In this document: positions 15,334 to 32,577 of the stretch, piece by piece | Numbering within the stretch: the stretch's first letter is position 1 | Layout of the letters: every line of letters begins with the position of its first letter | Assembly (NCBI GenBank): GCA_042570465.1 | Contig: JBHPGO010000003.1 | Location: forward strand, 1-56,882 | Direction: 5' to 3' | Source: Patescibacteria group bacterium | GTDB lineage: Bacteria; Patescibacteriota; Microgenomatia; PFEM01; JBHPGO01 | DNA length: 56,882 bases | Made by a program: the position numbers and the translations under genes | The notes under the pieces: generated by a model | Told to the model about the DNA's origin: nothing | The model's input: the letters and a program-made list of their open reading frames with translations, nothing else | The model's database searches: none

Positions 15334-15352
15334 ATTCGATTGAAAAGACCAG

Positions 15353-16202: not shown

Positions 16203-16277
16203 ATTACACATTGTAAATCGCTCATTAAATATATCTTGAATTGTACATTTTACATTATTAATTATTCATTAACATAT

Positions 16278-16349
16278 TCCGCGGTAGCTCAATGGTAGAG
16301 CGGTCGACTGTTAATCGACTGGTTGTAGGTTCGAGTCCTACCCGCGGAG
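16278..16349 (+). tRNA. tRNA-Asn(GTT)
   Basis: cloverleaf; acceptor TCCGCGG/CCGCGGA, anticodon loop CTGTTAA, GGTTCGAGTCC. Confidence 0.95.
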
Positions 16350-16471
16350 CAAGATGGGCGTTAATAGAACTTCTTTTAGCCTTGTAAATTGCAGTTTTTC
16401 CATTGATTTTGTGTGGTTTATAAAAAGGTCAGCTTCATATAAAATAAGCTTGAGGAAACCGTAGAAATACA

Positions 16472-16612
16472 ATGAAAAAGAAAAAAGCCAAAGCAACATT
16501 TATGCAGTTTGCCAAGAAAGCAAAGACAAAGGATTATATGGCGACAGCTTTCTGGTATCATATGTTTTTCGTTCCCAGCAATCTGTCATTGAATGAGTTT
16601 TTTAAGAAATGA
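16472..16612 (+). CDS. small basic hypothetical protein (46 aa)
   Basis: ORF ends in an ATGA overlap with the next gene. Confidence 0.35.
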   Translation: MKKKKAKATFMQFAKKAKTKDYMATAFWYHMFFVPSNLSLNEFFKK

Positions 16613-17529
16613 ATATGAAAAAGCCAAAAATTGTCGTTACCAGCCCAATGAATTTTCTTCCTGAACAGAGGAAAAGACTAGAAAAACTTGGTGATGTAAG
16701 AATCTACGATACACTTCCCAAATCTCCTGATGAATGGATGAAAAGAACTGAAGGATATGAAATTGTTTGTAGTGGAAAATATGGTTTAACCGAGAGGATA
16801 TATGAGAGGAAAAATGTCTTTTATTCTCTACCGTTTGTTGCAGTTGGTTGGATTGATATAAAGAAACTACAAGAAGCTGGAAATACTGTTTCTTACTCTC
16901 CGGGATGTAATAGTTATGCAGTAAGTGAGTGGATAATATCTTCAACTCTCTTATTAATGAGAAAGTTTGATCGCTTAGTAAATACTAAAAAGCTAAAGAA
17001 TAAAACCGGCTCACCTGACTACTTTGGACTTGCTGATAAAAAGGTATGTGTTTTGGGTAAGGGACATATTGGTTCAAAAGTGGGCAAAGTATTGAATAGC
17101 TTAGGCATGGAAGTTAGTTATTATGGCAGAAGTGACGATTTAATTAAAAAAGTAAAAGGGCGTGATGCTGTAGTAAATACTCTGAGTTCCAACGAAAGTA
17201 CTCAGGGATTACTTGATAAGAGGTTTTTTGATTCATTCTCTGGTAAAACATTTTTTCTTACTGTTACTAGTTTAAAGATATATGATTCGGAAGCAATGCT
17301 CGAAGCATTGAAAAAAGGAAAGCTCCTTGGTGTGGCTGATGATTGTGGGAGTATTTTACCTGGAGATTATGATGATCCTTACTACAAAAGGCTTTTAAAG
17401 ACTACTGGCGTTATTGCAACTCCACACATTGCATATCAATCAGATGTATCTATAAGAATTAGCAATGATATGTTGATTGATAATGTCGAAGCTTGGATAA
17501 AAGGAAAGCCAATACATTTATTGAAATAA
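16609..17529 (+). CDS. D-isomer-specific 2-hydroxyacid dehydrogenase
   Basis: PGCNSYAVSE, GKGHIG, TPHIAY. Confidence 0.85.
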   Translation: MNMKKPKIVVTSPMNFLPEQRKRLEKLGDVRIYDTLPKSPDEWMKRTEGYEIVCSGKYGLTERIYERKNVFYSLPFVAVGWIDIKKLQEAGNTVSYSPGCNSYAVSEWIISSTLLLMRKFDRLVNTKKLKNKTGSPDYFGLADKKVCVLGKGHIGSKVGKVLNSLGMEVSYYGRSDDLIKKVKGRDAVVNTLSSNESTQGLLDKRFFDSFSGKTFFLTVTSLKIYDSEAMLEALKKGKLLGVADDCGSILPGDYDDPYYKRLLKTTGVIATPHIAYQSDVSIRISNDMLIDNVEAWIKGKPIHLLK

Positions 17530-18125
17530 TGATGCATAAACAACTAATTACTTGTGTTCTACATGGTGGTGAAACCTCAAGGAAGTCACCATATAACGAT
17601 TTGTTTTTTAAGCAATTCACTGAATTGGTGGACAAAAAAACTATAAAGATATTGATGTGTTATTGGTCAAGGGATAAGAGTAAGTGGGATGAGTTGCTTA
17701 AAAGGGATAGTGAGAAAGTGTTGAAGCAAACAAATAAGAAAGTGGTTTTTACCCTAGTGGGAAGTGTTAAGGATTTATACAAGCAACTTGCAGACAACGA
17801 TGTTTTGTATGTAGCAGGTGGTGACGCTGAATTGATCGAACCATTTCTTCCCAATATTAAAGATCTCAAAAAACATCTTCAAGGAAAAGTTTATATTGGG
17901 AGTTCGATGGGTGCTTTTATTGTTTCTAAACATTATGTGCTGTCGTTTGACAGTCAAGATTCGAACAGTGTCCACGATGGGATAGGGATGATTCCTATAA
18001 ATACACTCTGCCATTGGGATCCAGAAACTAGAAAGAGTCAAAAAATTAGCTTACTTAAAAAGAAAACTCCAAACATACCAATACTCACCCTAGACGAGTG
18101 TAAGCATGTAACATTTGTTATTTAA
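17529..18125 (+). CDS. peptidase S51 (peptidase E)-like protein
   Basis: LYVAGGD, YIGSSMGA, CHWD. Confidence 0.8.
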   Translation: MMHKQLITCVLHGGETSRKSPYNDLFFKQFTELVDKKTIKILMCYWSRDKSKWDELLKRDSEKVLKQTNKKVVFTLVGSVKDLYKQLADNDVLYVAGGDAELIEPFLPNIKDLKKHLQGKVYIGSSMGAFIVSKHYVLSFDSQDSNSVHDGIGMIPINTLCHWDPETRKSQKISLLKKKTPNIPILTLDECKHVTFVI

Positions 18126-18338
18126 CGTATTTCAGGGACTAGCTACTACTGCAGGTTGTAACTTCTTTATCTCCTCCCATCTGATCTTTAATACCTCCAT
18201 TTCCCCAACATTTTCAAAAGCCTGAATGATCGCCTTAATGGAAAATTGTAGGATTTCAGGTGATGGGAGCCCAATAGGACACTATTTAAATCCTCTTTTC
18301 CCTCTTGACTTTTTGTATGAATATTGTATGATTAGTGT

Positions 18339-18572
18339 ATGGCTACGATTAACATCTCGCTACCGATTAAGCTGAAAACACAAGCAGAAGCTCTCGTTAA
18401 GGGTGGCTATTATGCTTCTTTTAGTGATTTGGTTAGAGATTCGCTGCGTCGCCTAGTCGAAAGGGGCAAGTATGATTTGTGGTTGGATGAAGCCAAGGAC
18501 GACTTGAAGAAAGGTAAGGCGGTGATTTTAAAATCTGGTAAAGAGATTAACGAATATCTTAAGAAAGTATAA
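18339..18572 (+). CDS. RHH/CopG-type antitoxin
   Basis: INISLP...YASFSDLVRDSLRRL; directly upstream of toxin. Confidence 0.8.
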   Translation: MATINISLPIKLKTQAEALVKGGYYASFSDLVRDSLRRLVERGKYDLWLDEAKDDLKKGKAVILKSGKEINEYLKKV

Positions 18573-18833
18573 ATGTACCGACTGGTCCTCTCTTCTGCTT
18601 TTCAACGACAGTTGAAAAGACTTGTTAAAAGAAATCCACGCTTGAAAGGCAAGATTAAAAAGATTTTCGAATACCTAATCAAAAACGTCAATCACTCCTC
18701 ATTAAAACTCCACAAATTATCAGGCAAGAATAATTGGTCGATTTCGGTCACTCACGATATTCGGATAATTATCCATTTGGAAGGAGATCAAATCTTCTGC
18801 CTTCGGATTGGTTCCCACGATCAAGTTTATTAG
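18573..18833 (+). CDS. RelE/YafQ-family mRNA interferase toxin
   Basis: LKLHKLSG...WSISV..DIRII...IGSHDQVY. Confidence 0.85.
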   Translation: MYRLVLSSAFQRQLKRLVKRNPRLKGKIKKIFEYLIKNVNHSSLKLHKLSGKNNWSISVTHDIRIIIHLEGDQIFCLRIGSHDQVY

Positions 18834-18967
18834 AATTTGGAAGGCTTCGAATCTGCCAGAAACTTCAGATAATCCCACTCACTTTTGAAGATCAATCCAC
18901 GTTCAGTGCCTCGGTTGATGATGTGGTAAAATAATCCTGGAACAACCTGGCGGGCGTACCTGGGCAT
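18830..18967 (-). pseudogene. N-terminal fragment of Y1 (IS200/RAYT-like) transposase
   Basis: manual translation MPRYARQVVPGLFYHIINRGTERGLIFKSEWDYLKFL, stop after 45 aa; no HUH motif or catalytic Tyr. Confidence 0.75.
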
Positions 18968-18983
18968 AATTATCTACTAGTCT

Positions 18984-19187
18984 ATGCCAAAAAAAGGCCT
19001 TTGTGTCAAACTATCCTGGGTCTGTCCCTGTTGCCCTCTAGAGCTATGGACCCCTGCCTACTTTGACCCCACTAACAAAAAATTTATTCGCGTCAAAGAG
19101 GCAGAAAGCGTGTTCCTAGACAGAAAAGCGATAGTAAGCATAGAAAAAATCTCAGATAAAGAAGCTATAAAAATCTATAAAAAATAA
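18984..19187 (+). CDS. hypothetical protein
   Basis: ORF only. Confidence 0.4.
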   Translation: MPKKGLCVKLSWVCPCCPLELWTPAYFDPTNKKFIRVKEAESVFLDRKAIVSIEKISDKEAIKIYKK

Positions 19188-19225
19188 AAGCCGCTACTTT
19201 GTTTTTCGAAAATCTCGAGCGGTTA

Positions 19226-19302
19226 AAACTTGAAGTCGCCTATCACTCATACCTCTCACCCTCTTTTCCAAAACAATCTCTCATTTCCCAAGTCTAGGAA
19301 AT
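19226..19302 (+). repeat. dispersed ~80-bp repeat (copy 1; copy 2 at ~33400-33475)
   Basis: AAACTTGAAGTCGCCTATCACTCATACCTCTCACCCT... vs AAACTCGAAGTCGCCTGCCACTCATAGCTCTCACCCT... Confidence 0.7.
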
Positions 19303-19343
19303 TGATAATTTTGGTCGGCGTGGGGTTTTGATATAATGAACCC

Positions 19344-19727
19344 GTGAAGACAAAAATTGAAACTCCAAAAGCGATGCTTCCGGGCGAAAGCCCACATTCT
19401 CAAGCAATCGTAGCAAATGGTTTTGTATTTACTCAGGGCGTAATTTGTTTGACTCCCAAAGGTAAAGTGCTCGAAGGGACAATTGAGGAGCAAGTTCATC
19501 AGATAATGAAAAGCCTCCAAGCTATCCTTAAGGAAGCAGGCACTTCATTTGAAAGTGTGGTAAAAACTACGATTTTTGTGACTAGCATGTCGATTTATGG
19601 AAAAGTGAATGAGGTTTATAAAGGTTACTTTTCTGATCCCTATCCTGCCAGAGAAACAGTTTGTGTGAAAGAGCTTCCCTTGGGTGCCGAGGTGGAAATT
19701 AGCATGATAGCAGTGAGCGAGAAATGA
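19344..19727 (+). CDS. RidA/YjgF family protein
   Basis: HSQAI, VVKTTIF, PYPARETV, LPLGAEVEI. Confidence 0.9.
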   Translation: MKTKIETPKAMLPGESPHSQAIVANGFVFTQGVICLTPKGKVLEGTIEEQVHQIMKSLQAILKEAGTSFESVVKTTIFVTSMSIYGKVNEVYKGYFSDPYPARETVCVKELPLGAEVEISMIAVSEK

Positions 19728-20065
19728 GAGAAGTTCATAAAAACGAGGCAAAAAAACATCAAAATAGCGAGGTGTGTCTAGCTGTTGAGTATCCCTTGGG
19801 AGATAAAGACATTAACGGCGCTGTTATTCATTTAAGTGGCAGGTACCCCGACGAGGGGAGGGTGGTTAACGAGGAGTGCAAAGAATTAGCTTACGTCATC
19901 AATGGCTCAGGAAAATTGGTGGTGGAAGGTAAAGAAGTTGAATTGAATGAAGGCGACATGGTTTTAATTGAACCTGGAGAGAGGTATTTTTGGGACGGTA
20001 AAATGACCATGTTTGTACCTTGTGTCCCCGCTTGGACTCCCGAACAACATAAAGAAGTTAAATGA
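19724..20065 (+). CDS. cupin domain protein
   Basis: ELAYVINGSG...LNEGDMVLIEPGE. Confidence 0.8.
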   Translation: MREVHKNEAKKHQNSEVCLAVEYPLGDKDINGAVIHLSGRYPDEGRVVNEECKELAYVINGSGKLVVEGKEVELNEGDMVLIEPGERYFWDGKMTMFVPCVPAWTPEQHKEVK

Positions 20066-20295
20066 GTAAGCTGAAAGTTGGTAAATGCCAGCATTATAAA
20101 GGCAAATTACATGAAGTTATTGGCGTGGCTCGCCACAGTGAGACTTTAGAGGAATTGGTGGTTTACAAAGCTCTATACGAAAGCAAGGATTTTGGTAAAG
20201 ATGCTTTATGGGTAAGGCCATTGAAAATGTTTCTGGAAAAAGTTGAGGTTGACGGTAATAAGGTTCCAAGATTCAAATTTATTGGAGGAAAATGA
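20062..20295 (+). CDS. DUF1653-family protein
   Basis: HYKG, ARHSETLEELVVYKALY, WVRPLKMF, PRF. Confidence 0.85.
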   Translation: MSKLKVGKCQHYKGKLHEVIGVARHSETLEELVVYKALYESKDFGKDALWVRPLKMFLEKVEVDGNKVPRFKFIGGK

Positions 20296-22073
20296 AAAAA
20301 ACCTTAAAACACTCCTTAAGAGTTCTTGCTATTTCCTGGAAGGCAAATCGTTTTTATCTCCCACTCTCAATTTTCAGTAAGGTGTATCAGGATACTTTGT
20401 ATCCACTGGTTATGGTGATTTTATTGGCACGCATTATTGACATGCTTGAGTCATCGCAGATATTATCCGTCTCCGACTTCAGCCTTATAATATCTCTATT
20501 TGTTGTAGCTTCACTTTTGAAATTAACACTATCTAGTTTTTTAGATGTTAAACAGGCCTATTTGGATTTTAAGCTTGAAGCATGCCTGGATATAGAAATT
20601 GCTGAAAAGCTGGTAAGTCTCGACCCTGCAACTTTGGAAATGCCAAGTTTTCAGAGTTTACTTGCCCAAATAGAGGGGGCAAAAGGAGCTATCCAAAAGC
20701 ACATTATCCGCCTGATAGCTTTTATTAGTGCTATTTTCAAGGTTGTTACAGCAGCCATAGTGGTCTTTTCAGCTTTTCCAATTGTTATCCCCTTAATATT
20801 ATTGGCAACGATCCCTTCGTATTTGGCTTGGGATAGAACTAGAAAGAAAACCTGGATCTACTACACGAAGAAGCGTTCATTAATGGTTAGAGTTACGAGA
20901 TACATTAAAACTCTTCTTTTTACCGACTCCACTTCCAAAGAGGTGGCTATATTCAAAACTGGCCCAGTGTTGTTGTCAAAAATTAAGAAGCATCAGAAGA
21001 AGTACTTCAACAGTTTTAACAAGGCAAATAATCCAAGAATGGTTGAGATTATTCTTGCAAGAATCCTTCAGTTCTTTGTTTTTATTTACACCCAGTATCT
21101 AAATTTGACTGCGGTTTTGAAGGGAACGCTTAGTCTTGGTCAATTTGCACTAATTTTTTCACAGACATATAACTTGGCCACATCTTCAGAGGACATACTG
21201 AATCAATACTCCAGCATTTCAGCACGAAATAAACACCTAGATCTGTTTTTTAAGTTTCTAGAAACCAAAAGAAAAGTCTCGTTACCTAAATCGCCAAAAC
21301 CAATGAGAAAAAAACCGTACCCGCCAATAATTGAATTTAACAATGTGTCATTTCGATATCCGGGTACCAAAAGAGATATTCTCAGGGGATTTAACTTGAC
21401 AATAAACAGTGGGGAGAAAATCGCACTTGTGGGAGAAAATGGTGCAGGAAAAACAACATTGATCAAATTACTATTGCGATTCCACGATGTAATCAATGGC
21501 GAAGTATTGATTAATGGAATGAATATTAAGGAGTTGGATTTAGATGAGTGGCACAAATTGACAGGAGCGCTTTTCCAAGATTTTATTAAATACCAATTCA
21601 CTTTTAAAGAAAATGTATATTTTGGAGACTTAGAGGAATCAGGAAATATGAAATTATTTACTAAAAGCATTGAAGGGTCAGGTGCAAGTACTTACTTAGG
21701 AAAGCTGCCCAAAGGTGAGAGTCAAGTGCTTGGAAAGATGTTTGAGGGTGGTATTGACCTTTCAGGTGGACAATGGCAAAAACTTGCCCTTGCAAGGGCG
21801 TTTTTCAGAAATGCGCCAATTCTTGTCCTTGACGAACCCACAAGTGCAATTGATGCGAAAGCAGAGTATGAAATATTCCAAAAGGTACAAAAGCTACAAA
21901 AGGATAAAACAGTTATGATCATCTCTCACAGATTCTCGACCGTTAGAAACGCGGACAGAATCTTAGTGTTAAATGAAGGAAGAATTATTGAAGAGGGTGA
22001 TCATAAAGAATTAATGAAGAAGAAGGGCCTGTATGAAGAATTGTTTACATTACAGGCTCAAGGATACAAGTAA
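20292..22073 (+). CDS. ABC transporter ATP-binding/permease fusion
   Basis: GENGAGKT, LSGGQWQ, LVLDEPT; N-terminal TM domain. Confidence 0.92.
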   Translation: MKKTLKHSLRVLAISWKANRFYLPLSIFSKVYQDTLYPLVMVILLARIIDMLESSQILSVSDFSLIISLFVVASLLKLTLSSFLDVKQAYLDFKLEACLDIEIAEKLVSLDPATLEMPSFQSLLAQIEGAKGAIQKHIIRLIAFISAIFKVVTAAIVVFSAFPIVIPLILLATIPSYLAWDRTRKKTWIYYTKKRSLMVRVTRYIKTLLFTDSTSKEVAIFKTGPVLLSKIKKHQKKYFNSFNKANNPRMVEIILARILQFFVFIYTQYLNLTAVLKGTLSLGQFALIFSQTYNLATSSEDILNQYSSISARNKHLDLFFKFLETKRKVSLPKSPKPMRKKPYPPIIEFNNVSFRYPGTKRDILRGFNLTINSGEKIALVGENGAGKTTLIKLLLRFHDVINGEVLINGMNIKELDLDEWHKLTGALFQDFIKYQFTFKENVYFGDLEESGNMKLFTKSIEGSGASTYLGKLPKGESQVLGKMFEGGIDLSGGQWQKLALARAFFRNAPILVLDEPTSAIDAKAEYEIFQKVQKLQKDKTVMIISHRFSTVRNADRILVLNEGRIIEEGDHKELMKKKGLYEELFTLQAQGYK

Positions 22074-22295
22074 CCACGTAGATCTGGTTTGTCTCTTATG
22101 AGCGATTAACCAAAAGCTGGAATAAAAATAGGTTCTTTTACGCCTAACAAAAAGGTTCGAACTCTGTCCCCCACACAAGTTTAGCATTCGGCTTTTGGGA
22201 ACTATTCGTTCACGCCTCATGCTGCACTTTGGCGGGGCAGGCACGCTCCCCAGCATAGTGTACGAACTTAGAAGCTGTTTTGATATACTTCAGTT

Positions 22296-22844
22296 GTGGC
22301 AATAAGACCAAAGCTGGTTTCTGTCTCAATTCCTGAATACACAGTCGATTCTCAACCCGATTATGTTGCTATCGGAGCCAAGATAGATAAGGTTTTGGAA
22401 GAAAATTTTGAAGGGTATTTCTTGGAACGAGTTTTGAGTCTGACTGACCATCCTAGATACAATCTCGACGAATTGGTGAATATTATTATCAAAACAGGAA
22501 CTGACAAATATGATCCAAATCGCAAGGGTGTCGCTCACGAACAATTTGAACCATATAAGCCCGATTTACAAGCTGGAGAGATTAAGATACATAGTGGCAA
22601 GTTGAATAATCCACATAGTACAGGACTCATAAAACTTTTCTATGAAAATGTTCTTTTGGATAGGGGCTACAGATTGAGAATTGACCTTATTCTTTTGTAC
22701 GACCCTAAGCAATTGGTCCGGGCTGAAAAAGTTGACTATACAAAACCAAGTGTCGATCCAAACCTTGAACAATATCTTTGGAGATTTAAGGATCCGAATA
22801 ATAAACAAAAAGCCTTGTTAGGAATTATTAAAATATTGAGGTAA
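22296..22844 (+). CDS. hypothetical protein (cassette cargo)
   Basis: 182-aa ORF starting 6 nt after TGATATACT. Confidence 0.65.
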   Translation: MAIRPKLVSVSIPEYTVDSQPDYVAIGAKIDKVLEENFEGYFLERVLSLTDHPRYNLDELVNIIIKTGTDKYDPNRKGVAHEQFEPYKPDLQAGEIKIHSGKLNNPHSTGLIKLFYENVLLDRGYRLRIDLILLYDPKQLVRAEKVDYTKPSVDPNLEQYLWRFKDPNNKQKALLGIIKILR

Positions 22845-23116
22845 TCAAAAAGACACACCTTGTGTTAAATGGGGCGAGGGCAAAATGTTTGCCGATGAGA
22901 GTAAGGAATAACCTCGAAGCTTGTATGCTAAAGGGAGCTAGTAGAATCGAAATTATTTGTCTCTTGAAGTTTTAGGCTTGCGTAGAATAATTTAACGTCG
23001 TCCAGGTTGTATTCAAACTCAATCTTTCGGTTGCAGAATAAGTCCTTTAGGGGGAGCTGATTTGTTCTTAATCTAACCACTTTAATACTTTACTATTTCT
23101 ATAGTAGAATAAAGTC

Positions 23117-23560
23117 ATGTTGTTTTGGGTTGTCTTAATAATCTTCATCTTAGTAGTTGCATATTTAGACCAAATTGGTTGGCTACAATATCAAGCTAAA
23201 GTAAAGGACAGGAAGATTCATTTAAGACATTATTTTAAAAAGAAAGAGATTGATATTGATTCAATTACTAAGGCAAGAACCCTTTTAAAAGGTGCATACG
23301 CTACAAAGGTTGTACAGGTTAAGACTGGCGAGAATTGGGAAGACATAGCAAAGATAACCTTCTTAAATTATAAAAATAATTCTACGCTTCTTAATTCTTT
23401 GAAATCTTTAAATCCAAATATAGAATTTTCACCTGAGCTAGGAGATTATTCAAAAGCTGGTAATATCGGAGACTACTTTATAAACAAAAAGCAGATAATT
23501 AGAGGATTATTGTTACTTTTAATATTTGCCTTTCTTATTTTGATATCGTATTTGTTTTAG
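23117..23560 (+). CDS. membrane protein, possible PH-like domain (cassette cargo)
   Basis: N- and C-terminal TM helices; starts 6 nt after TAGAAT. Confidence 0.6.
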   Translation: MLFWVVLIIFILVVAYLDQIGWLQYQAKVKDRKIHLRHYFKKKEIDIDSITKARTLLKGAYATKVVQVKTGENWEDIAKITFLNYKNNSTLLNSLKSLNPNIEFSPELGDYSKAGNIGDYFINKKQIIRGLLLLLIFAFLILISYLF

Positions 23561-23937
23561 CCTTTCTCTATTCTGTTCGATTATCGCTACATTTTGAAAA
23601 ACCTTAATAATTTCAGTTAGATTAATCCTAGGACTAGGGAGCCAATCTTTTGTTTTGTTGGCTTCTAGTATTGCATCAAACGGCATTTTGAGGCTAGGAA
23701 TGAGCTTTTTGCCGTCCATTTGCGAGTTCTGAAACAAATAGAATAATAGCTCTCTTTTTTGATGAGCGTCTGCTTTTTCAAACAATTCGTGTGCTTTATG
23801 TGCTAATTCCAGTAGCTTACTAGCCTTAACAAAGTAGTTTTCGTCAGCGTTACTATGTTGTTCCATCTGTATTATCAAATCTGCCTGTATCCTCTTATAC
23901 TTGCTCAGTAGCGTGTCATACTTATCTTCTGTAATTC
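23519..23937 (-). pseudogene. 3' remnant of large serine recombinase fused in frame to a cassette tail
   Basis: ITEDKYDTLL...HSNADENY...QKRELLFYLFQN...PFDAILEANKTKDW|LPSPRINL; no catalytic N-terminal domain. Confidence 0.7.
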
Positions 23938-24813
23938 ACCATATTCAGACAATTCTTTACCTTCCTCTGTATAATTGTGATTATCTACATAATAATCTGC
24001 TTCGTAGTTTGAGCTTAATACTTCACTAACTACATTTAGCAGTTCTGCCACTGTAATAGTAAAGTCATCAACTCTTTTATATGCGTTTACCTCGGCTAAT
24101 TGGTTGTCTTGAACGACACTTAAAAACTCGTTTTTATTAAAATTAACACCACTATAATCTCTAAAACTTATGTTGATTTTCATAGTGGGACTTATGTATT
24201 TTCCGAGTGTTTCATAGTTATTGGTTTCTAATAAATCAACAACTTCGTCTGACCTTTCTAATAAGCCTAGTGGTTTAAGAACATCAACAACTGACTGTCT
24301 TTTTGATGTGACTATCTGGCTATATTGGGAAAATCTGGCATATCGCACGGTGAATGTGGCTACTGCAGTTAAACCAAGAACAACCAGAAGACCTAATATT
24401 GAATGTAATAAAGCAGTTTTTTTCTTTCTTAAATCAAGTATTGCGAATAGTGTGTAAACTATCACGATGGAAGCCACAGAGGCAATTAAGGGCATTATTT
24501 CAGCCAAGATATTCGGTTGGAAATAACTAAATATATAACGCCAGACAAAAAGGGAGCCAATAAAAACTGCTATTGAATTGACAACTGTTGCGTTGATGTT
24601 TCTTAGTAAGTGCTTTAAGGCCCAACGAGCTAGTAATGATGTAACTAGCACGATAATAAAAGGTGTCATAAAAGTAATTAAAAGATGAAGCACGTCAGAC
24701 GGAATAAATTGTAAAAAGAACGGCATTCTTTCTTGCAAGCAAGCTCCTGGAACGCCACATTCACAGGGAGTACAACCTAATACTTGAGGTGTTGTAGTAA
24801 TGAGCGTAAACAT
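23905..24813 (-). CDS. membrane protein, probably 3'-truncated onto the recombinase remnant
   Basis: 4 TM helices; last codons read out of frame through recombinase DNA. Confidence 0.6.
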   Translation of the reverse strand: MFTLITTTPQVLGCTPCECGVPGACLQERMPFFLQFIPSDVLHLLITFMTPFIIVLVTSLLARWALKHLLRNINATVVNSIAVFIGSLFVWRYIFSYFQPNILAEIMPLIASVASIVIVYTLFAILDLRKKKTALLHSILGLLVVLGLTAVATFTVRYARFSQYSQIVTSKRQSVVDVLKPLGLLERSDEVVDLLETNNYETLGKYISPTMKINISFRDYSGVNFNKNEFLSVVQDNQLAEVNAYKRVDDFTITVAELLNVVSEVLSSNYEADYYVDNHNYTEEGKELSEYGELQKISMTRY

Positions 24814-24817
24814 AGTT

Positions 24818-25930
24818 TTATTGAGTATAAGACGATAATTTTATAGGTAGTAAGTTCGCTTCATCTTGGCCAAATGACATATTAACAGTTACTTCGCAAC
24901 GCTCAGTTTGTTGTCCTTCGTCGCCTGTAAAAATCACTTTGCAATCAAGATTATCTATCTTTGAGACAGAGGTAAGTGGCCCTGTGGTTACTTGCTTTGT
25001 TTCCTTATCCCATACTTCTTGGGCTGTGTATCTTATTGTTTCTATGCCATAGCTGGAAATTATCTGTATATCCCAGGCAGTAGATGTTGAGTAAGACGTC
25101 ATTGAGCCTGCTTGCAAAGATACATTTTCAGATGATTGGGGCGTAGAGAAGTTTTGTATAGAGAGTTTTGGCATAGTTAAGTAGATTAAAGGGCTTTCTG
25201 GTTGGGTTATCGCCCCACTAAAAGATGTGTTCGCATTGAAGGCGCGATTAAATGGCTCAAGCTTTTTTGTGAGTGCTTCTTCTTGACCACTGGTAACCTG
25301 AATTGTGCAATCTGTTACCCATACTTCTGGAACATCTGTAAACCTAGTTTCGGTGTTGCAACCCTGGTTTTTTAATGTAATAAAGTAACCGTTATTGTAA
25401 AAAGACACTCCATTCCTAATTGGAAGGTGATTTATATTGTGGATGTCGTTAAGTGAGTAGTTTTGTCCAAAGACAATATCTGGGACTGCTTTAGATGACC
25501 CGCCACTGCCAAACAATATTCTTGTTTCACCATCGGCCAGTAAGTGTTGTTTTTCCTGAGCAAGTCCTGGAATTACTTTTATAGTTTGAGTGCCTAGAGA
25601 TACCGTAGGGCTAGCCATATCTGTTGGTTTAGCAACCTCATTTGTGGGTGTTGATGTGGTCTGAGAGGTCTTATTCTGGTTTACAAACAATAATCTGAAA
25701 AAATTCCAATTAAGTACAATGCCTGCAATAATTAGCCCCAGAAGAATAAGCGAAGCAATTACAATTTTAGCAACATTTTTTTTACCTTTGTAGTCTTTTG
25801 TTTCAATAGGTGGCTGTATATCTGTGTTTTGTTGAACTTGAGGTATTGGTTCAGGCGCATTCGGTAGTTTTGTATCAGAGGTTTTATTGTCATTCGTTAC
25901 TTCTTCCATATTATTTTCAGTATACTTCAA
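24818..25930 (-). CDS. single-pass membrane protein with extracellular domain
   Basis: one TM helix followed by a Thr/Ser-rich linker. Confidence 0.65.
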   Translation of the reverse strand: MKYTENNMEEVTNDNKTSDTKLPNAPEPIPQVQQNTDIQPPIETKDYKGKKNVAKIVIASLILLGLIIAGIVLNWNFFRLLFVNQNKTSQTTSTPTNEVAKPTDMASPTVSLGTQTIKVIPGLAQEKQHLLADGETRILFGSGGSSKAVPDIVFGQNYSLNDIHNINHLPIRNGVSFYNNGYFITLKNQGCNTETRFTDVPEVWVTDCTIQVTSGQEEALTKKLEPFNRAFNANTSFSGAITQPESPLIYLTMPKLSIQNFSTPQSSENVSLQAGSMTSYSTSTAWDIQIISSYGIETIRYTAQEVWDKETKQVTTGPLTSVSKIDNLDCKVIFTGDEGQQTERCEVTVNMSFGQDEANLLPIKLSSYTQ

Positions 25931-26034
25931 GCAAAATTAAAATTGTAGTTATCAAATTCGTATTTTGAGTAATCAAGTGTTCTGAATGTATTTATTAGGG
26001 GGAGCTGAACTTGTCTTAATCTAACCTCTTTCTT

Positions 26035-26988
26035 GTGGTAAGATTGAATCTAGTGAATAAAGAATCTCGTAAATCTATAATTACAGTAATCCTGCTACTT
26101 CTATCTCCTCTTCTTTCCTGGTCCCTAACTCCAATTACAATGATTCCAGCAGCAATAATTGGCAGCTTTGTTACGAGAGGCTGTAAAGGCTCAATGTGTG
26201 GTTTTGCTGAAGGTATTTTTATCACGGTTTTTCTTAATATTATTGCGGCTTATATTATTTCCCTCAGTATTTATTTATTGACTCATAAAAAAGAAAAGCC
26301 CAGAAAAAAAATTATCGTTGCAAGCTTACTCCTTTTATACTACGCAGCTTTGGTATCTGGGTTTATTTTATTTGCCAGGCATGAACAAGGAAAGTTAGAA
26401 AGAAAAAATCTGGAGGTTATTGAATCTCTACAGACGTTGGAAGCAAAAGATATTGTTTTTGTTGAAAGGACAGTGCGGATAAACAAAACTGACTGGAAAA
26501 TTTATACAAAAGACAATTTGGCTTATCAGATTAAGTACCCAAAAAACTTTAGAATTCAAGACCACCAGGCTCCAACTAACTATGTTTTTCGTGCCCCTGA
26601 TGATTCTTACCCTTCTGCTAAGTGGAACAGAAACAATCAATTTTTCACTCTGGGAGGGTTCAATAAAAAATTCCAACAATTTCCTGATGACAATGAAGCG
26701 ATAAATCAAGCTATCAAGAATATAAATAATGCAAACATTAAAACTCCCTCATTTCCTACCAAAATCAATGAGCCTGCTGAAAAATCTATTTCAACTCGGG
26801 GGTGGAAATTCTATTTTATTGAAAAAGGTAGTAGGAAAACTACAAAAGAAGGTTTGGAATTTGATGAATTATCTATCGTTATCAATGTTCCTGGGAGGGG
26901 ATATTTATTTTGGGGAGGACATACAACTTTTGAAGGTGGGCTTGAACTAATCAAACAGGTTGTTGAGGAAGTGGAGGAGATTAGATAG
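26035..26988 (+). CDS. membrane protein with PsbP-like C-terminal domain (cassette cargo)
   Basis: TM helices, then WKIYT...YQIKYP motif. Confidence 0.6.
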   Translation: MVRLNLVNKESRKSIITVILLLLSPLLSWSLTPITMIPAAIIGSFVTRGCKGSMCGFAEGIFITVFLNIIAAYIISLSIYLLTHKKEKPRKKIIVASLLLLYYAALVSGFILFARHEQGKLERKNLEVIESLQTLEAKDIVFVERTVRINKTDWKIYTKDNLAYQIKYPKNFRIQDHQAPTNYVFRAPDDSYPSAKWNRNNQFFTLGGFNKKFQQFPDDNEAINQAIKNINNANIKTPSFPTKINEPAEKSISTRGWKFYFIEKGSRKTTKEGLEFDELSIVINVPGRGYLFWGGHTTFEGGLELIKQVVEEVEEIR

Positions 26989-27149
26989 CAGACTCCCTAG
27001 AAACTTAAATTCTTTATTTGTTTCAATCTTTCTCTTGCCTGTTCAGCAATTACTACAGTTTGAAAAACCTTAATAATCTTACTTAGATTAATCCTAGGAC
27101 TAGGGAGCATAGTGTACGAACTTAGAATCTTCTTTGATATACTGCCATT

Positions 27150-27788
27150 ATGGTATCCAAGAGCCTTCTTTGGCATTACACACAGTTGCTTCAAGAGTAC
27201 GGCGACCCAATAACATACTGGCCACAGTGGTGTGCCAAAACAAAGTCCGTAAAAGAGCGAGAGAAAATTATTATTGGGATGGTTTTAGTCCAGAGAACAA
27301 GTTGGCATAACGCCAATATCGCTCTTAAAAACCTTAAAAAAGAAAACTTGTTATCAATCAGGAAAATCTCTGAATTAAAATCACTAGATAAACTTACCCA
27401 ACTGATTCGATCTGCCGGTTTTTACCAGTCAAAGCCTAAACGCCTATTTGATATATGCGCCTTTGCTATTGGCCAAGGAGGCATAAGTAGACTGATAAAG
27501 AGGGATGCCTCAAAATTGAGGTTAGACCTTCTCGACATTAAGGGCGTTGGTCAAGAAACCGCTGACACAATCCTGCTTTATGCCCTAGATAAACCAGTTT
27601 TTATTATTGACGAATATGCTCGACGCTGGGTTGAAAAGAATGGCATAACAAAAGAAAAAGATTATCTTAAATTACAACAGTTTTTCCACGATAATCTAAA
27701 AAAAGACCTCCTTATTTATCAGAATTTTCATACGCTTATTATCGTTTGCCAGCGAGGTAGGGAAAAGTCAGTAATGGAAGTTGTATAA
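27150..27788 (+). CDS. HhH-GPD endonuclease III-like DNA glycosylase
   Basis: LVQRTSW, IRSAGFYQSK, IKGVGQETADTILLYA, IDEYARR. Confidence 0.88.
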   Translation: MVSKSLLWHYTQLLQEYGDPITYWPQWCAKTKSVKEREKIIIGMVLVQRTSWHNANIALKNLKKENLLSIRKISELKSLDKLTQLIRSAGFYQSKPKRLFDICAFAIGQGGISRLIKRDASKLRLDLLDIKGVGQETADTILLYALDKPVFIIDEYARRWVEKNGITKEKDYLKLQQFFHDNLKKDLLIYQNFHTLIIVCQRGREKSVMEVV

Positions 27789-28707
27789 AGGAGGGGAGCA
27801 TAAAATACAAACTTATAGAAATAATGTCGGCGCTTCTCGGATAGGTAGTGACACAGCTACCAAAATAATCCCAATATCGAATAGTATTGGGGTTACAGTT
27901 GCTGGACCTGCCTTTTTGACTGATCCATCTACGCGAAAATCAAATCCAAGAAGCATAGCCACTTTTATCAACGATTATGCTTCTGGCTTAAAAGGTCAAA
28001 AGACAATAAAAAGCATTGCGGAGGGCCTAAAAACATATCTAACTGACATTTATCGCCCGGAGGAGCAGCTTAAAAAAATAGAGAAAGAAATTGAGGAGCG
28101 CATCAAGCGAATGAAGGGTGAGATTGAGAGTAGTGAGCGTGGTGAGGATAAAGAGAAGATAGTTGTCAGTTTCAAAGACAGTGACGGGAAGTTGCAAAAA
28201 GCAATCGGCGCAGTTACCCCAATCTCTTTGATTGTGGCCGGTTATGACAGGGGCAAGGATGGTGAGAAAAAAATGTCTGTCTATGTGATCTATATCCCGG
28301 GTAAGCTGGTGAATAAGCGCAAGCACGATAATGTTAATCAATATGGCGCCGACTGGACGGGCCAAAAAGATGTCGTCGCCAGGGTGATATTGGGTAGAGA
28401 CCCCAGGACACCAGCTCTCGGCTTTGCCCAAGAGGCGATTAACAGATTGGGAGAAAAAAAGGTACTTGATGAACTAAGAAGGCTTGAATATAGGATAAAT
28501 TGGGGCGGAATGACTCTCTTTGATGCTGTCGATTTTGCCACTCTAATGATAGAGATAACGGCAGCTATTCAGAGATTTTCCGACGGTATCCAGTTAACAC
28601 CCGGTGATTTGCCCGGTGTTGGTGGTGGTGCTGACGTGGCAATAGTAACTCCGGATAGCGGTTTTCACTGGCACAAGCGTAAGGAGCTAAAACTAGAGAA
28701 ACCTTAA
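27781..28707 (+). pseudogene. proteasome-beta-like Ntn hydrolase, apparently 5'-truncated
   Basis: KIIPIS..IGVTVAG, LIVAGYD, GVGGGADVAIVTP present; N-terminal nucleophile/GIVLAADS strand absent; 5' end at a GGGGAGC junction. Confidence 0.55.
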
Positions 28708-28879
28708 AGGTGGACCACTCTTATGGGGGTAGAAGCTTCTCGGTTGAGGAGAGGGGTTTGAGCTGGGTGATTAACAAATCACTACAGTTCAAGACGCTCC
28801 GTTGATTTAAGGTCGCCGCGTTTTTATTAACCCCTTGAGGTACTAACACAATTAGGGATCTATTGTATAATCTCATTAT

Positions 28880-29341
28880 ATGGAAATGGAGATTTTTACC
28901 GGAGTTGTCCTTTTAGACGACCGACAAAGAATTTACCTCATTAAAGAGGACGATGAAAATAAGATCGGACAAGATAGGTGGAATTTGCCCGGTGGCGGGA
29001 TTGATATTGGCGAGGGTATAATTGAATCCGCCAAGCGAGAAACTCTTGAGGAAACTGGTTATCAATCCAAGACAAAATCAATTCTCGGTGTTTACCAAGG
29101 CTCTAAGGTCGGTAAATCCTGGCTCTATGTTGTTTTAGGCGCCACTATCTCCGGTCCGACTCAAAAACCGGTAAAAGACGCCTCTATTAAGGCCGGAAAG
29201 TGGTTCGCAAAAGATGAATTTTTAGGTTTAGACTCCTCCTCTCTCGTCCATTCCGACATGAAATTGGTTTATCGGAAAGCGATTGGTGATAAGGGGCTGG
29301 GGCTGGATAGTGTTAAATTCGTCAATTATGATTCGAAATAG
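28880..29341 (+). CDS. NUDIX hydrolase
   Basis: WNLPGGGIDIGEGIIESAKRETLEETG Nudix box. Confidence 0.9.
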   Translation: MEMEIFTGVVLLDDRQRIYLIKEDDENKIGQDRWNLPGGGIDIGEGIIESAKRETLEETGYQSKTKSILGVYQGSKVGKSWLYVVLGATISGPTQKPVKDASIKAGKWFAKDEFLGLDSSSLVHSDMKLVYRKAIGDKGLGLDSVKFVNYDSK

Positions 29342-29376
29342 TTTCCCGTTTCGTTTTTTGATATACTAACCCCAAT

Positions 29377-29673
29377 ATGGCGGAAAATGAGCTAAAAGTT
29401 GAGGATTTCGGCAGAGAGTTTGAGACTAGTGGCGTTCTCCAAACCACGAAGGGCACGGTGGTCCCTCACGGGAGTAAAGTTGCTTTTGTCGGAGGCTTCA
29501 CTGACCCAACGGATGTCAAGGCTAGAAAGTACGTGGGGGGAGATTTTGGCACTTGGAATGTTTACCGAGTGGATACTGGCGAGGAGGGGGTAGAGCGGAT
29601 TCACGCTGAACCCGGCTCAACGGCCGACCAAAAAGCTAGAGGAGCTTGGAAGCCCCCAAAAGTAAAAAGATAA
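29377..29673 (+). CDS. hypothetical protein
   Basis: ORF after TGATATACT. Confidence 0.55.
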   Translation: MAENELKVEDFGREFETSGVLQTTKGTVVPHGSKVAFVGGFTDPTDVKARKYVGGDFGTWNVYRVDTGEEGVERIHAEPGSTADQKARGAWKPPKVKR

Positions 29674-29716
29674 AAATTAATCGATTGAGTCCCGTTTTTA
29701 TTAACCTCCAATAGTA

Positions 29717-30080
29717 CTAACACAACTGGGGATCTGTTGTATAAGCTCGATTTAGAGCCGGGGTTCGTTTTCGGGATTTAGTGGTTGAGATTGAAATTTG
29801 AATTTCAGCCGGTAACGAGGGGTTTAGAATCTGATCGATAAAAAAGTTTCTCACAGGTTCCAACCATCGGAGCCAATCCTTTGTTTTATTGGCTTCTAGT
29901 ATGGCATCAAACGGCATTTTGAGGATAGGATGAGCTTTTTGCCGTCCATTTGAGAGTTCTGAAATAAGTAAAACAATAGCTCTCTTTTTTGATAAGCATC
30001 CGCTTTTTCAAACAATTCGTGGGCTTTGTGTACCAATTTCAATAGCTTGCTAGCTTTAACAAAGTGGTTTTCGTCTCAGC
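29717..30080 (-). pseudogene. second, frameshifted 3' remnant of large serine recombinase plus a different tail
   Basis: 29874-~30075 is a near-copy of 23643-~23845; PFDAILEANKTKDW|LRWLEPVRNFF. Confidence 0.7.
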
Positions 30081-30122
30081 CATATTTACTTTTCGTCTCA
30101 TTTATGAGACGATTTAACTGTT

Positions 30123-31175
30123 ATGGACCCCACACTTAACTCAAGACAAAAAAGTATAATTAATGCTCTAAAGAGTAACGGTAAATTGAGTAGAGCTGAA
30201 ATTACAAACCTTCTGTCTAAGACTAAAAAGGTTTCCCGGCCTACGGTTATCAGAGATTTAAACGAATTATTGGCACTTAAAATTGTTAAAACCGAAGGAG
30301 GAGGAAGGGCAACCGTATATAGATTGAGTCAGGAAAATTCGTTATTGCAATACTTTGATGTAGACGATTATTTCTCTCGAGGCTTATATGACAGAAGTGC
30401 AATGAAAAATTTTAATCCTGGCGTATTTGACAGCCTAGCTTCTTTGTACAACAAAAGCGAGATTGCGCTGTGGGAGAAGAGTGTGAAAGAATTTTCCAAG
30501 AGATCTCAAAAACTAGACCCCACCATTTACAAGAGAGAGTTGGAGAGGTTTATCATTGAATTGTCTTGGAAATCTTCACAGATTGAAGGAAACACCTATA
30601 CCTTGCTTGAAACAGAAACGCTCATAAAACAAAGAATCCGTGCCAAAGGTCATGCCGAAGGCGAAGCTATTATGATCTTAAATCACAAATACGCTTTCGA
30701 TGAAATGCTTAACAACAAGGAGCGATACAAAAAACTCACGCTTTCTAAAGTAAGTGATCTTCACTCCATCCTTGTTCGCGGACTTGGAGTTTCAGAAGGA
30801 ATCAGAAAAGAGAGAGTGGGTATAACCGGCACTATCTACAAACCCATAGCAGATTCGACCAAATTACACAAAAAATTACTAGAGCTTATTGATCATGTAA
30901 ACTCGGTTGATTACCCTCCAGAAAAGGCACTGATTATCGCAGCAATGGTGGCGTATTTACAGCCATTTGCTGACGGAAACAAAAGGACTTCTAGAATGCT
31001 GGCAAATGCAATATTGCTGGCATATGGTTATTATCCGCTATCTTACAGAGATGTTGATGTGAATGAATACAAGAAAACCATGCTACTTTTTTATGAACAA
31101 AACAATCTCTATCATCTTAAGCGAATATTTATAGAGCAATTGCAATTTGCAATGGACAACTACTTCAGGGTGTGA
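30123..31175 (+). CDS. Fic-family protein with N-terminal HTH
   Basis: QPFADGNKRTSR Fic motif, SSQIEGN. Confidence 0.9.
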   Translation: MDPTLNSRQKSIINALKSNGKLSRAEITNLLSKTKKVSRPTVIRDLNELLALKIVKTEGGGRATVYRLSQENSLLQYFDVDDYFSRGLYDRSAMKNFNPGVFDSLASLYNKSEIALWEKSVKEFSKRSQKLDPTIYKRELERFIIELSWKSSQIEGNTYTLLETETLIKQRIRAKGHAEGEAIMILNHKYAFDEMLNNKERYKKLTLSKVSDLHSILVRGLGVSEGIRKERVGITGTIYKPIADSTKLHKKLLELIDHVNSVDYPPEKALIIAAMVAYLQPFADGNKRTSRMLANAILLAYGYYPLSYRDVDVNEYKKTMLLFYEQNNLYHLKRIFIEQLQFAMDNYFRV

Positions 31176-31301
31176 TCATATACTTGCCTTGCTGTAGCAA
31201 TTGAACCATTCGGATAATATCCAGCAGACGAAGCCCAATAGGACACTATCCGAACCCCATTTACCCCTTGACATTCCATACAATTATTGTATCATTAATG
31301 T

Positions 31302-31535
31302 ATGACTACAATTAACATTTCATTACCAATCAAACTTAAAACACAAGCAGAAGCCCTGGTCAAAGGTGGCTATTATGCTTCTTTTAGTGATCTAGTGAGA
31401 GATTCGCTCCGTCGTTTAGTCGAAAAAAGTAAGTATGATTTATGGTTGGATGAGGCAAAAGAAGACTTAAGAAAAGGCGAGGCTGTAGTTTTAAAATCTG
31501 ATAAGGAGATTGACAACTATTTGAAGGGGACTTAG
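31302..31535 (+). CDS. RHH/CopG-type antitoxin (paralog of 18339)
   Basis: protein nearly identical to 18339-18572. Confidence 0.8.
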   Translation: MTTINISLPIKLKTQAEALVKGGYYASFSDLVRDSLRRLVEKSKYDLWLDEAKEDLRKGEAVVLKSDKEIDNYLKGT

Positions 31536-31536
31536 A

Positions 31537-31797
31537 ATGAGTCAGGTTATTCTCTCCTCCACTTTTCAACGACAACCTAAAAAGCTTGTCAAGAATAATC
31601 CCAGACTGAAAAGCAAAATTAACAAGATCTTAAATTACCTAATCAAAGACATTAGCCATTCCTCACTTCGGCTTCACAAGTTATCTGGAAGAAACAACTG
31701 GTCAATATCGGTAACCCACGATGTTCGAATGATTATTCATTTGGAGGGAAACCAAGTTTTCTGTCTTCGCATCGGTAGCCACGATCAGGCCTACTAA
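31537..31797 (+). CDS. RelE/YafQ-family toxin (paralog of 18573)
   Basis: LRLHKLSG...WSISV...IGSHDQAY. Confidence 0.82.
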   Translation: MSQVILSSTFQRQPKKLVKNNPRLKSKINKILNYLIKDISHSSLRLHKLSGRNNWSISVTHDVRMIIHLEGNQVFCLRIGSHDQAY

Positions 31798-31935
31798 TAT
31801 TTGCAGTTAATCAACGTAAAAACACCCCCCAGAGATGGGTAGGCCACACGTTCTTTGTCTAGATTTCATTTATTTTGGAATGAGACCAATATCTTTGATA
31901 TACTTCAAATATGAACAAAAAGGAGGTGACTATTA

Positions 31936-32217
31936 ATGGCAGGTAAAAAAGATTCATGCAATGAAGAGCAAATCAAAGATTGGATTGAAAAAGGAGTTAA
32001 AAAACTAGAAAACATGGATTGTAAAGATAAAAAAGGGATAAAAAAACATGCTGGTTCTGGAGCGGCCGGGACAATTTGGTTTTTGGGTTTTATCGGTGCA
32101 GTAGTCTATTTCATTCAACAGGCAACCTCTTTTGGAGCAGGACTGATTGGTTTATTCAAAGCCCTGGTATGGCCAGCGTTTCTAATCTACAATTTGTTGG
32201 AATTTCTCAAAATATAA
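31936..32217 (+). CDS. small membrane protein
   Basis: RBS AGGAGGTG; GFIGAVVYFIQQA...KALVWPA. Confidence 0.7.
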   Translation: MAGKKDSCNEEQIKDWIEKGVKKLENMDCKDKKGIKKHAGSGAAGTIWFLGFIGAVVYFIQQATSFGAGLIGLFKALVWPAFLIYNLLEFLKI

Positions 32218-32279
32218 GTAGGTTTTGTCTGGATTTACCTCAAGCTGGCACAAACATCGTTCACGATGGGAAAGCTATT

Positions 32280-32573
32280 CTACCTGGGGGTGGTATTCTC
32301 AGAAATTTTCAATCTCTCAAGTAATTTAAGTGTGACCTTTACAGAGGGATTGTTAGTGTTTTTTAAAACCACGCGATTACCGAATCGCTCAACTAATTTT
32401 GTTATAAACTCATCAGCCCAAGATGGTGTAAAAGTAACAACTTCTTTAAAATCAATTTCTATTTGTTCGTTTTCAACTAAGTTTTGAAGCTGTGGATTCA
32501 TGGCAGCAAGAGCTTCCCGACCGTCTTGCCGAGATGTTAATATATTTCCAAATTTTTTTAGTTCTATCTTCAT
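32280..32573 (-). CDS. STAS-like (DUF4325) protein
   Basis: LTSRQDGREA...IDFKEV..FTPSWADEF. Confidence 0.8.
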   Translation of the reverse strand: MKIELKKFGNILTSRQDGREALAAMNPQLQNLVENEQIEIDFKEVVTFTPSWADEFITKLVERFGNRVVLKNTNNPSVKVTLKLLERLKISENTTPR

Positions 32574-32577
32574 AGTT

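Follow-up and report, generated by a model that had tools for sequence, protein, structure and literature searches.

The window considered here, a stretch of 56,882 nt, represents contig JBHPGO010000003.1 (C3) of the genome of a Patescibacteria group bacterium, the assembly of which comprises 968 kb in 54 contigs and is 79% complete. Downstream of a tRNA-Asn(GTT) gene (16278–16350, plus strand) lie about nine small cassettes with the core GGAGC at their joints, and open reading frames start at these joints on the minus strand. What are these open tails, and are they, as a preliminary description of the sequence had it, exchangeable C-termini of a recombinase? Comparison with other genomes makes it probable that the tails are orphaned 3'-terminal coding modules of genes for large serine recombinases (LSRs) and that the crossover takes place inside such genes; an LSR encoded on the circle or at a tandem junction may have the long tail as its native C-terminus.

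Nine junctions were found, at positions 16349/50, 18269, 22252, 23056, 23641, 26004, 27107, 29872 and 31233, all of the type ..GG(G)A|GC.., with a degenerate core at 22252 and 31233 (GAAGC at the latter). The first of them is situated at the 3' end of the tRNA-Asn gene, the end of which (..GCGGAGC) bears the core. The right arms form four families with two copies each, namely, A (18269 and 31233), B (22252 and 27107), C (23056 and 26004) and D (23641 and 29872). Left sides are common to 23641 and 27107 only (94 nt, 83% identity) and are different at the other junctions. From the bases that left and right families have in common, the exchange point can be confined to AGC (coding strand, GCT); read on the minus strand, this trinucleotide completes a Trp or Gln codon with its first base and opens a Leu codon with the other two. 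Minus-strand translation of the right arms into the core Leu gave CPIG, SSYTM, RTNQ, RQVQ and KTKDW, the same five in-frame readings as had been listed earlier, and the tRNA junction reported as PIL|LRG-stop was borne out by eye from the sequence.

On the other side of the core, the minus-strand frames remain open from the core Leu for 45, 42, 40, 25, 36, 51 and 22 codons at 18269, 23056, 23641, 26004, 27107, 29872 and 31233, respectively. Open tails had been described at these seven internal junctions, and translation gave the same peptides, most of them longer than quoted. For a random minus-strand start in the island, the probability of an open run of at least 22 codons is ~0.30 and that of at least 36 codons is 0.15–0.18; the product of the single P values for seven of seven tails with at least 22 codons is ~2e-4. 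The openness of the tails is thus suggestive and argues against chance only weakly; homology decides.

By homology, three of the tails are of one type, designated a. The a2 tail (18135–18269, minus strand; 45 codons, IIQAFEN .. RWEEIKKLQ) starts at the core Leu and has an A-arm stub to its right (18269–18302). Two a1 tails, likewise on the minus strand, are located at 23522–23641 (40 codons), in in-frame fusion with a D-arm remnant of an LSR gene, and at 27000–27107 (36 codons, 83% nucleotide identity to the 23.6 kb copy), with a B-arm stub to the right (27106–27153). As previously proposed, the 18.2 kb tail resembles the 23.6 and 27.1 kb tails at the protein level only (37% identity, E 0.13–0.23); comparison with other genomes assigns them to two subfamilies of one widespread family, with the motifs IIKAFQN and ERLKQIK in a1 and IIQAFQN/D and RWEEIKKLQ in a2. 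The c-type tail at 22931–23056 (minus strand, 42 codons) begins LPLKDLFCNRKIEFE and adjoins a C-arm stub (23056–23083, ..RLRTNQ|L); the tail at 25930–26004 (minus strand, 25 codons, LPLINTFRTLDY..) is loosely c-like, and its C-arm stub (26004–26031) has the ending ..RLRQVQ|L, which recurs in P0163, a full-length LSR of another genome.

The remaining tails, all on the minus strand, are b-type or b-like. The tail at 22109–22252, to the right of which lies a B-arm stub (22252–22299), is disrupted: in comparison with intact copies on contig C7 of the same genome, ~70 extra bases, a non-multiple of three, part its LGSV start from the block ..DRVRTFL..IFIPAF, which confirms and explains the earlier statement that the block lies in another frame. 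The tails at 29720–29872 (51 codons, beginning LRWLEPVRNFF) and 31168–31233 (22 codons, beginning LRLLDIIRMV, with an A-arm stub at 31233–31266) have b-type-like starts and are otherwise distant. The pairing of arms and tails varies in this genome, arm D being joined to a1 and b-like tails, arm C to c and a2, arm B to b and a1, and arm A to a2 and b-like tails, and such mixing of left and right families is as expected from recombination at the core. Outside the window, the C arm recurs at C2:18005–18142 as a perfect match of 25 nt adjoining an a2-type tail, again at an isolated junction, and there is an isolated c-type tail junction, preceded by a stop and then W|L, at C24:6556–6666.

The assignment of the arms to recombinase genes is based primarily on the D arm, which continues upstream as an open frame of ~90 codons. 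Together with its tail it gave a 129-residue query that matched twelve LSRs of 402–567 aa; ten of these (P0001–P0010) are similar to it at 60–93% identity up to the core and no further (68–71% coverage). At the core the homologues proceed from ..ANKTKDW to LRR, LPG or LPR, or to strings such as LPRLDSN and LLDLDSNQEPS. LPRLDSN-like strings are the antisense of the tRNA acceptor stem and T arm, as confirmed at LSR loci adjoining antisense tRNAs. The C arm corresponds to the pre-core end of P0163, a 534-aa LSR (locus L037) with the domains PF00239, PF07508 and PF13408. PF00239 is also present in P0001 and in the LSR of L106, and PF07508, PF13408 and a coiled coil are found in the full-length homologues. 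The A, B and tRNA-side arms resemble LSR ends weakly, over 4–5 residues only (QPIG|L in L125, HPTM|L in L088 and RPVL|LRG in L126), so that the assignment as LSR ends is firm by homology for arms C and D only. In the protein library, most of the 150 best matches to the D-arm frame are proteins of 80–250 aa covering the LSR C-terminal region only; either LSR 3' remnants are very common in metagenomes or these are fragments from contig ends.

In the window, LSR sequence is represented only by the C-terminal 60–98 codons past the coiled coil. In a tblastn search with 38 full-length LSRs against the whole assembly, the best match in the window was at 23639–23935 (93% over 99 aa, residues 394–492 of P0001, E 7e-54); the corresponding 3' remnant (23642–23935, minus strand, ~98 codons; 93% identity to residues 394–492 of the 494-aa P0001) is without the catalytic, recombinase or zinc-ribbon part. 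The second match, 29899–30075 (83% over 59 aa), belongs to a broken D-arm remnant (29873–30102, minus strand) in which the match is spread over two frames with one TGA. Genome-wide profile scans placed PF00239 on C20 and C24 only, PF07508 only at C24:10029–10376 and PF00589 on C6, C11, C17 and C24, none of them on C3; a serine-recombinase domain of any size was not found in the window, and neither the D-arm frame nor the tails matched a Pfam family. The LSR leftovers of the window are accordingly two 3' remnants (the D arms) and A, B and C stubs of at most 8 codons; since there is no recombinase domain and only two 3' remnants are present, the tails are orphans. The proposal that the crossover lies inside the recombinase gene and swaps its C-terminus thus stands in part: it holds for the LSR genes of the homologues, given the tail families, near-identical bodies with unrelated tails and shuffled arms, and it does not hold for the window, where profile scans and tblastn revealed no recombinase gene.

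One of the two distant LSRs of this genome, of 552 aa, is encoded at C20:15663–17321, and its last ~18 codons overlap the start of the next plus-strand open reading frame (ORF; 17266–18078), the product of which we take, from its N-terminal motif, to be a P-loop GTPase-like protein; no GGAGC-type core was found at this overlap.

Tails of the same families were found on complete recombinases of other genomes. P0163 reads across the core Leu into a 41-residue tail with VIKTFQN and ERLKQI, of the family of the 23.6 and 27.1 kb tails, and a-type tails are present on 6 of 15 full-length relatives of its C-terminal region (P0163–P0167 and P0170), the other nine ending in LPR, LRR or tRNA-antisense strings. 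A 536-aa LSR in L073 ends in an a2-like tail; this protein, P0035 and the C2 copy are the relatives of the 18.2 kb tail. The b-type block occurs on the fragment P0103 and on the 551-aa LSR of L106, and in six intact copies on C7 behind a tRNA-Gln gene. The c-type tail of 23056 is shared with the LSR 3' fragments P0014 and P0160 and with the C24 junction. Alignment with LSR C-termini, an approach suggested in the preliminary description, therefore shows that the tails match them, full-length carriers being available for a-, a2- and b-type tails.

A six-frame search with a 43-residue window tail gave matches in 22 of 401 genomes of the class (E <= 0.01, many weak, with G000 included). The a-type block, of which 21 copies were compiled, is present three times in the window and in 18 other genomes, on inspection from many families of the class; the set excludes L009, L017, L022 and L029 as duplicates and the window copies L007, L012–L015 and L036, and L030, L032 and L033 fall outside the block pattern, although the block is visible in L032, one residue off the pattern. 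Among the viral contigs, 31 loci were found, all with at most 30% identity to the LSR alignment, with no close phage copy. At L074, where an LSR lies directly at a tRNA-Asn gene, no a- or b-type tail was found in 6 kb upstream, and the far end of this single integrated element was not seen.

The second array of this genome extends on C7 over ~12592–27700, behind tRNA-Gln(CTG) (12592–12663), with intact b-type minus-strand tails (VD[RT][VI]RT .. P.. [ILV]P) at the junctions 15144, 17405, 19128, 20291, 20996 and 27614; a profile scan found no recombinase domain on C7. As the b-type tails share GGTTCGA and the ..CCCAG end with tRNA-Gln, plain copying of the tRNA-Gln 3' end was considered as their origin; it was rejected as the full explanation because the b-type sequence is ~5 nt longer and has a further conserved peptide block.

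That body and tail are separable is indicated by P0014, P0016 and P0004, in which 72–74 of 75 residues before the core are identical and only 1–2 of 27–39 after it. P0014 and P0016 share 74/75 residues before and 1/39 after, and P0014 and P0004 73/75 before and 2/27 after; their tails are c-type (P0014), an unrelated string (P0016) and tRNA antisense (P0004). Body homology yielded 79 LSR loci in a set of species-representative genomes (80 before L075, an N-terminal part on a 1.7-kb contig, was dropped); in 41 of them, antisense tRNA is located at the LSR stop, the tRNAs being Asn, Glu, Arg, Gln, Asp, Ser, Pro, Ala and Thr. In L037/L071 and L072, an intact LSR gene is followed by the core and an a-tail and then, after ~60 nt, by a 45-nt LSR-end stub, a second core and tRNA-Asn; the a-tail into which the LSR reads belongs to a cargo-less mini-cassette between the LSR and tRNA-Asn; this arrangement indicates that a working LSR can draw its tail from a relic cassette. 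In L037/L071, an antisense tRNA-like T arm and acceptor end lie past the LSR-end stub (2739–2860) and were not called by ARAGORN, the equivalent in L072 being a called tRNA-Asn. Arrays at tRNA-Asn with LSR remnants and a-tails are also present in L038 and L032, and the D remnant of the window reads into the preceding cassette. Taken together, these data show that the crossover lies inside LSR genes, at the boundary between a Trp or Gln codon and Leu, 3 to ~45 codons before the stop, with exchange of the C-terminus.

Codon-level conservation of the tails, which the preliminary description had advised looking for, is present both in the 21-copy set and at loci anchored on the LSR body. In a 21-codon block of the 21 copies, mean pairwise differences at the first, second and third codon positions are 0.35, 0.27 and 0.52. 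The dN/dS ratio of the a-block (NG86) is 0.14–0.22 in the tail frame, 0.84–1.0 in the shifted sense frames and 0.24–1.05 in the antisense frames, for copies chosen by peptide similarity, which biases the ratio downward. Independent of the peptide choice are the position of the core and the ratio at body-anchored loci. Of the 21 copies, 17 have the core GCT[CT]C upstream of the block, in frame in every case and at six spacings (10, 12, 13, 14, 15 and 21 codons), and the body-anchored loci, which number only three (32–43 codons each), give a tail dN/dS of 0.25–0.67. The body ratio is 0.09 for the pair L071 and L072 only, body dS being incalculable for the other two pairs. By these measures of the sequences, the long tails are shown to be conserved peptide families.

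Several observations, besides the bias and the small number of loci just mentioned, weigh against this view. The two a1 copies in the window differ at 7, 8 and 8 sites by codon position, with 3 synonymous and 10 non-synonymous changed codons, and this pair looks like the result of neutral drift. An in-frame stop is present in 4 of 21 a-type copies. The first ~10 tail codons are conserved as DNA too (CCTAGGATTAAT..) and probably constitute a recombinase half-site; part of the conservation is therefore not related to the peptide. Full-length LSRs with a c-type tail were not found, only fragments of 110–115 aa. To judge from the gene content, no tail in the window is attached to a working gene, and tblastn elsewhere in the assembly detected two distant LSRs only, on C20 and C24 (20–26% identity).

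The facts can be brought together as follows. A clade of LSR-encoding integrative elements, common in genomes of the Candidate Phyla Radiation (CPR) type, inserts at the extreme 3' end of tRNA genes by exchange at AGC, with the LSR frame always crossing the junction. Next to the tRNA, the frame ends in a short, unrelated tRNA-antisense peptide, and next to the far end of another cassette the LSR gains a conserved tail of 25–45 residues (a1/a2, b or c). In the excised circle the element's own far end may supply the long tail, and the long tail acquired at the circle or a tandem junction would be the native C-terminus. Recombination at the core thus reassorts tails and LSR bodies without restriction. 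In the window, the LSR genes of the elements that accumulated behind tRNA-Asn have been lost, and the eight tails are relics, open and currently unused. The tail may further pack as two helices on the helical bundle at the coiled-coil base, and its loss on insertion by the tRNA may alter LSR activity, direction or stability.

Part of this picture would also be accounted for by ordinary decay of tandem prophage-like islands, with a dispensable C-terminal extension whose role was limited to having ended the LSR gene, an explanation that is unlikely without being negligible. It agrees with the deleted or broken LSR genes of the window, with the presence of all Pfam LSR domains in the pre-core body, and with the many homologues that work, or at least persist, with tails of 2–3 residues (LRR, LPG); however, one would not expect a dispensable tail to remain recognisable in 18 further genomes spread over many families of the class, and the tail dN/dS is below 1 also at the loci found via the LSR body.

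It is improbable that the tails are non-coding flanks of the attachment site (P arms and accessory DNA sites), held open by DNA constraint and descent next to an LSR that needs any stop past the core. The DNA conservation of the first ~10 codons across genomes, the absence of a third-position excess in the in-window a1 pair, the stops in four copies and the persistence of tails at LSR-less cassettes would fit such flanks, as would the case of dsiB, an LSR gene of Dehalococcoides, the overlapping part of which was considered unlikely to be functional by McMurdie et al. 2011 (PMC3146451), who found it divergent. Yet the conservation spans 25–45 codons, compared with ~25 bp for a half-site; third positions are about twice as variable as second ones, and the shifted sense frames approach neutrality; the frame is kept at all six spacings; and 6 of 15 full-length LSRs end in the a-type tail, which is moreover modelled as two helices on the LSR body. 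It is very improbable that the tails are independent small genes, 3' ends displaced from a former protein-coding target gene, or terminators or RNA elements serving the plus-strand cassette genes: one a-type copy (L034) has Met just before the block, a 99-aa open frame of L039 that does not look like an LSR runs into the a-tail, and the tails lie directly 3' of the last plus-strand gene of each cassette, but what precedes the block in 17 of the 21 copies is the core Leu, in frame, and not a start codon, none of the 23 terminator-like sites in 16000–34000 lies under an a- or c-type tail and only one (29856–29874) touches a junction, tRNA alone was matched in Rfam at gathering score across the island, the tails have no Pfam family, and they are the C-terminus of full-length LSRs.

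If the tails are taken as native LSR C-termini, their function may be approached through structure models. The AlphaFold2 model of P0163 (mean predicted local distance difference test score, pLDDT, 79.4) has the usual LSR architecture, in which the coiled coil is long (helices 340–388 and 393–420) and the C-terminal bundle consists of helices and a hairpin; the tail is modelled as two helices, 498–510 and 512–533 (pLDDT 58–80). When the body (1–492) and the tail (493–534) were modelled as separate chains, the complex score was 0.68, with the best control at 0.00, a partner pLDDT of at least 72 and contact agreement between runs of at least 73%; of 80 solved complexes 58 attain this mark, and of 110 mismatched pairs 2. 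Such a pass is to be expected more easily here, since these are two halves of one polypeptide with a self-supplied alignment. The predicted contacts of the tail are with residues 345–353, 420–434, 445–456 and 474–490, which represent the base of the coiled coil.

The modelled docking supports at most that the tail is an integral structural element and says nothing on regulation; its position at the coiled-coil base is suggestive in that it fits direction control in serine integrases. The directionality or stability switch put forward in the preliminary description would have this computational docking as its sole support. A more specific and doubtful proposal is that the tail acts as a state sensor of a two-way LSR free of accessory factors: the enzyme of the circle or a cassette junction would be tailed and clamped at the coiled-coil base, with an effect on direction or stability, the tRNA-side enzyme would be tailless and behave differently, and, as any cassette end could supply a tail, one LSR might mobilise the recombinase-less array, an integron-like capture in CPR. 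If this is true, one incoming LSR could mobilise the whole array, and serine-recombinase gene capture of the integron type would take place in reduced CPR genomes.

The array itself is distinguished by a reversed sign of GC skew from tRNA-Asn to ~33.5 kb, and its genes, mostly on the plus strand, are typical accessory cargo. They include genes for a 2-hydroxyacid dehydrogenase, an S51 peptidase, two ribbon-helix-helix (RHH) and ParE/YafQ-like pairs, RidA, a cupin, an ABC ATPase-permease, an HhH-GPD glycosylase, a NUDIX protein, a Fic protein, a MerR-type helix-turn-helix protein and several ORFs without a family. The cassettes 23056–23641 and 26004–27107 have identical end types (a left C arm and a right a1 tail), and the membrane proteins encoded by their ORFs (147 and 317 aa) are unrelated (BLASTP E = 42); with the same ends and unrelated proteins, the array behaves as a set of recombinase-less cassettes that are possibly mobilisable in trans.

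Both A-arm cassettes begin with paralogous pairs of an RHH antitoxin and a ParE/YafQ-like toxin (18269–18839 and 31233–31803, 73–80% nucleotide identity), preceded by strong promoter-like sites at 18305–18332 and 31268–31295. A 77-nt non-coding repeat (82% identity) is located at 19224–19300, upstream of the RidA gene, and at 33398–33474, upstream of an ORF at 33576; no Rfam family matched it at gathering score. Beside the tRNA cluster at 42.9–43.5 kb, a weak a-tail-like reading PSPSLNLTTIISVF.. was noticed at 43562–43612 on the plus strand (E 0.027–0.11), which is probably due to chance.

Were the tail to matter, this would be a natural serine integrase that rewrites its own C-terminus and couples integration state to behaviour without a directionality factor, with relevance to mobile-element biology and recombinase engineering. 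Even without a function of the tail, the exchange explains many odd C-termini of database 'recombinases' that resemble tRNA antisense, a large LSR clade is seen to target tRNA 3' ends (41 of the 79 loci), and recombinase-less cassette arrays emerge as a way in which genes move into and out of the small genomes of CPR bacteria.

The closest known system is that of the tandem ssrA islands of Dehalococcoides with the LSR DsiB (McMurdie et al. 2011, BMC Genomics 12:287, PMC3146451). Its authors proposed that dsiB may attain full function only on the circle or when adjoined by an island that carries 'the requisite 3' gene fragment' (PMC3146451). Both systems comprise tandem islands behind a small RNA gene, with short-repeat borders, some of them without an integrase ('cis-mobilizable'), an LSR of ~540 aa at the island edge on the reverse strand, and an LSR frame that crosses the junction and stops in the target RNA gene or a neighbouring island (here in 41 of 79 loci, in L037/L071 and L072, and in the D remnant of the window). 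In contrast to the DsiB islands, the target is tRNA-Asn (tRNA-Gln on C7) instead of tmRNA/ssrA, the core is ~5 bp and not a direct repeat of 20 bp, and the window has no serine-recombinase domain where those islands have a six-gene integration module with the small serine recombinase DsiA. The far-end tails are here conserved peptide families, present in many genomes and on full-length LSRs, whereas the overlapping part of dsiB was found to be divergent.

Attachment sites within genes are known from two other systems. In archaeal tyrosine integrases of the SSV1 type, attP lies inside int, and integration splits the gene into two large parts and destroys it. The attachment site in the recombinase's own gene and a product changed by integration are common features, whereas here the recombinase is of the serine type and only the last 3–45 codons are exchanged. 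In the integration-dependent immunity of mycobacteriophage BPs and its relatives, attP lies in the repressor gene, and integration swaps the C-terminus with loss of a degradation tag, as demonstrated experimentally. An attP in a coding gene and a C-terminus swapped on integration correspond to the mechanism of the preliminary description, although in BPs the gene is that of a repressor, the integrase is a tyrosine one and the effect was shown by experiment, while here the evidence consists of sequences and models.

In integrons, small cassettes, most of them consisting of a single operon, follow one another with matching recombination ends and unrelated cargo, and the same-ended cassettes with unrelated proteins as well as the toxin-antitoxin cassettes of the window are similar to them. 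Unlike in integrons, PF00589 (tyrosine IntI) is absent from the window, each cassette end corresponds to one half of an LSR attachment site, and the array is situated at a tRNA 3' end; attI and hairpin attC were not identified, no inverted-repeat or folding analysis of the junctions having been run.

In the integrases of phiC31, Bxb1 and SPbeta, attP is outside int, a separate directionality protein is used, and direction control proceeds via the coiled coil. The LSRs described here share PF00239, PF07508, PF13408 and the coiled coil with these phage enzymes, and the tail is modelled at that coiled coil. In the literature on phage large serine integrases, so far as it was covered by the search, a tail swapped by the reaction is not described, and a search for LSR arrays or tails in CPR genomes found none. 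The principle of an LSR gene overlapping its own attachment site is already known from dsiB since 2011; what the present comparison of sequences adds to it is a CPR clade that targets tRNA genes, conserved families of tails, and sharp recombination between body and tail.

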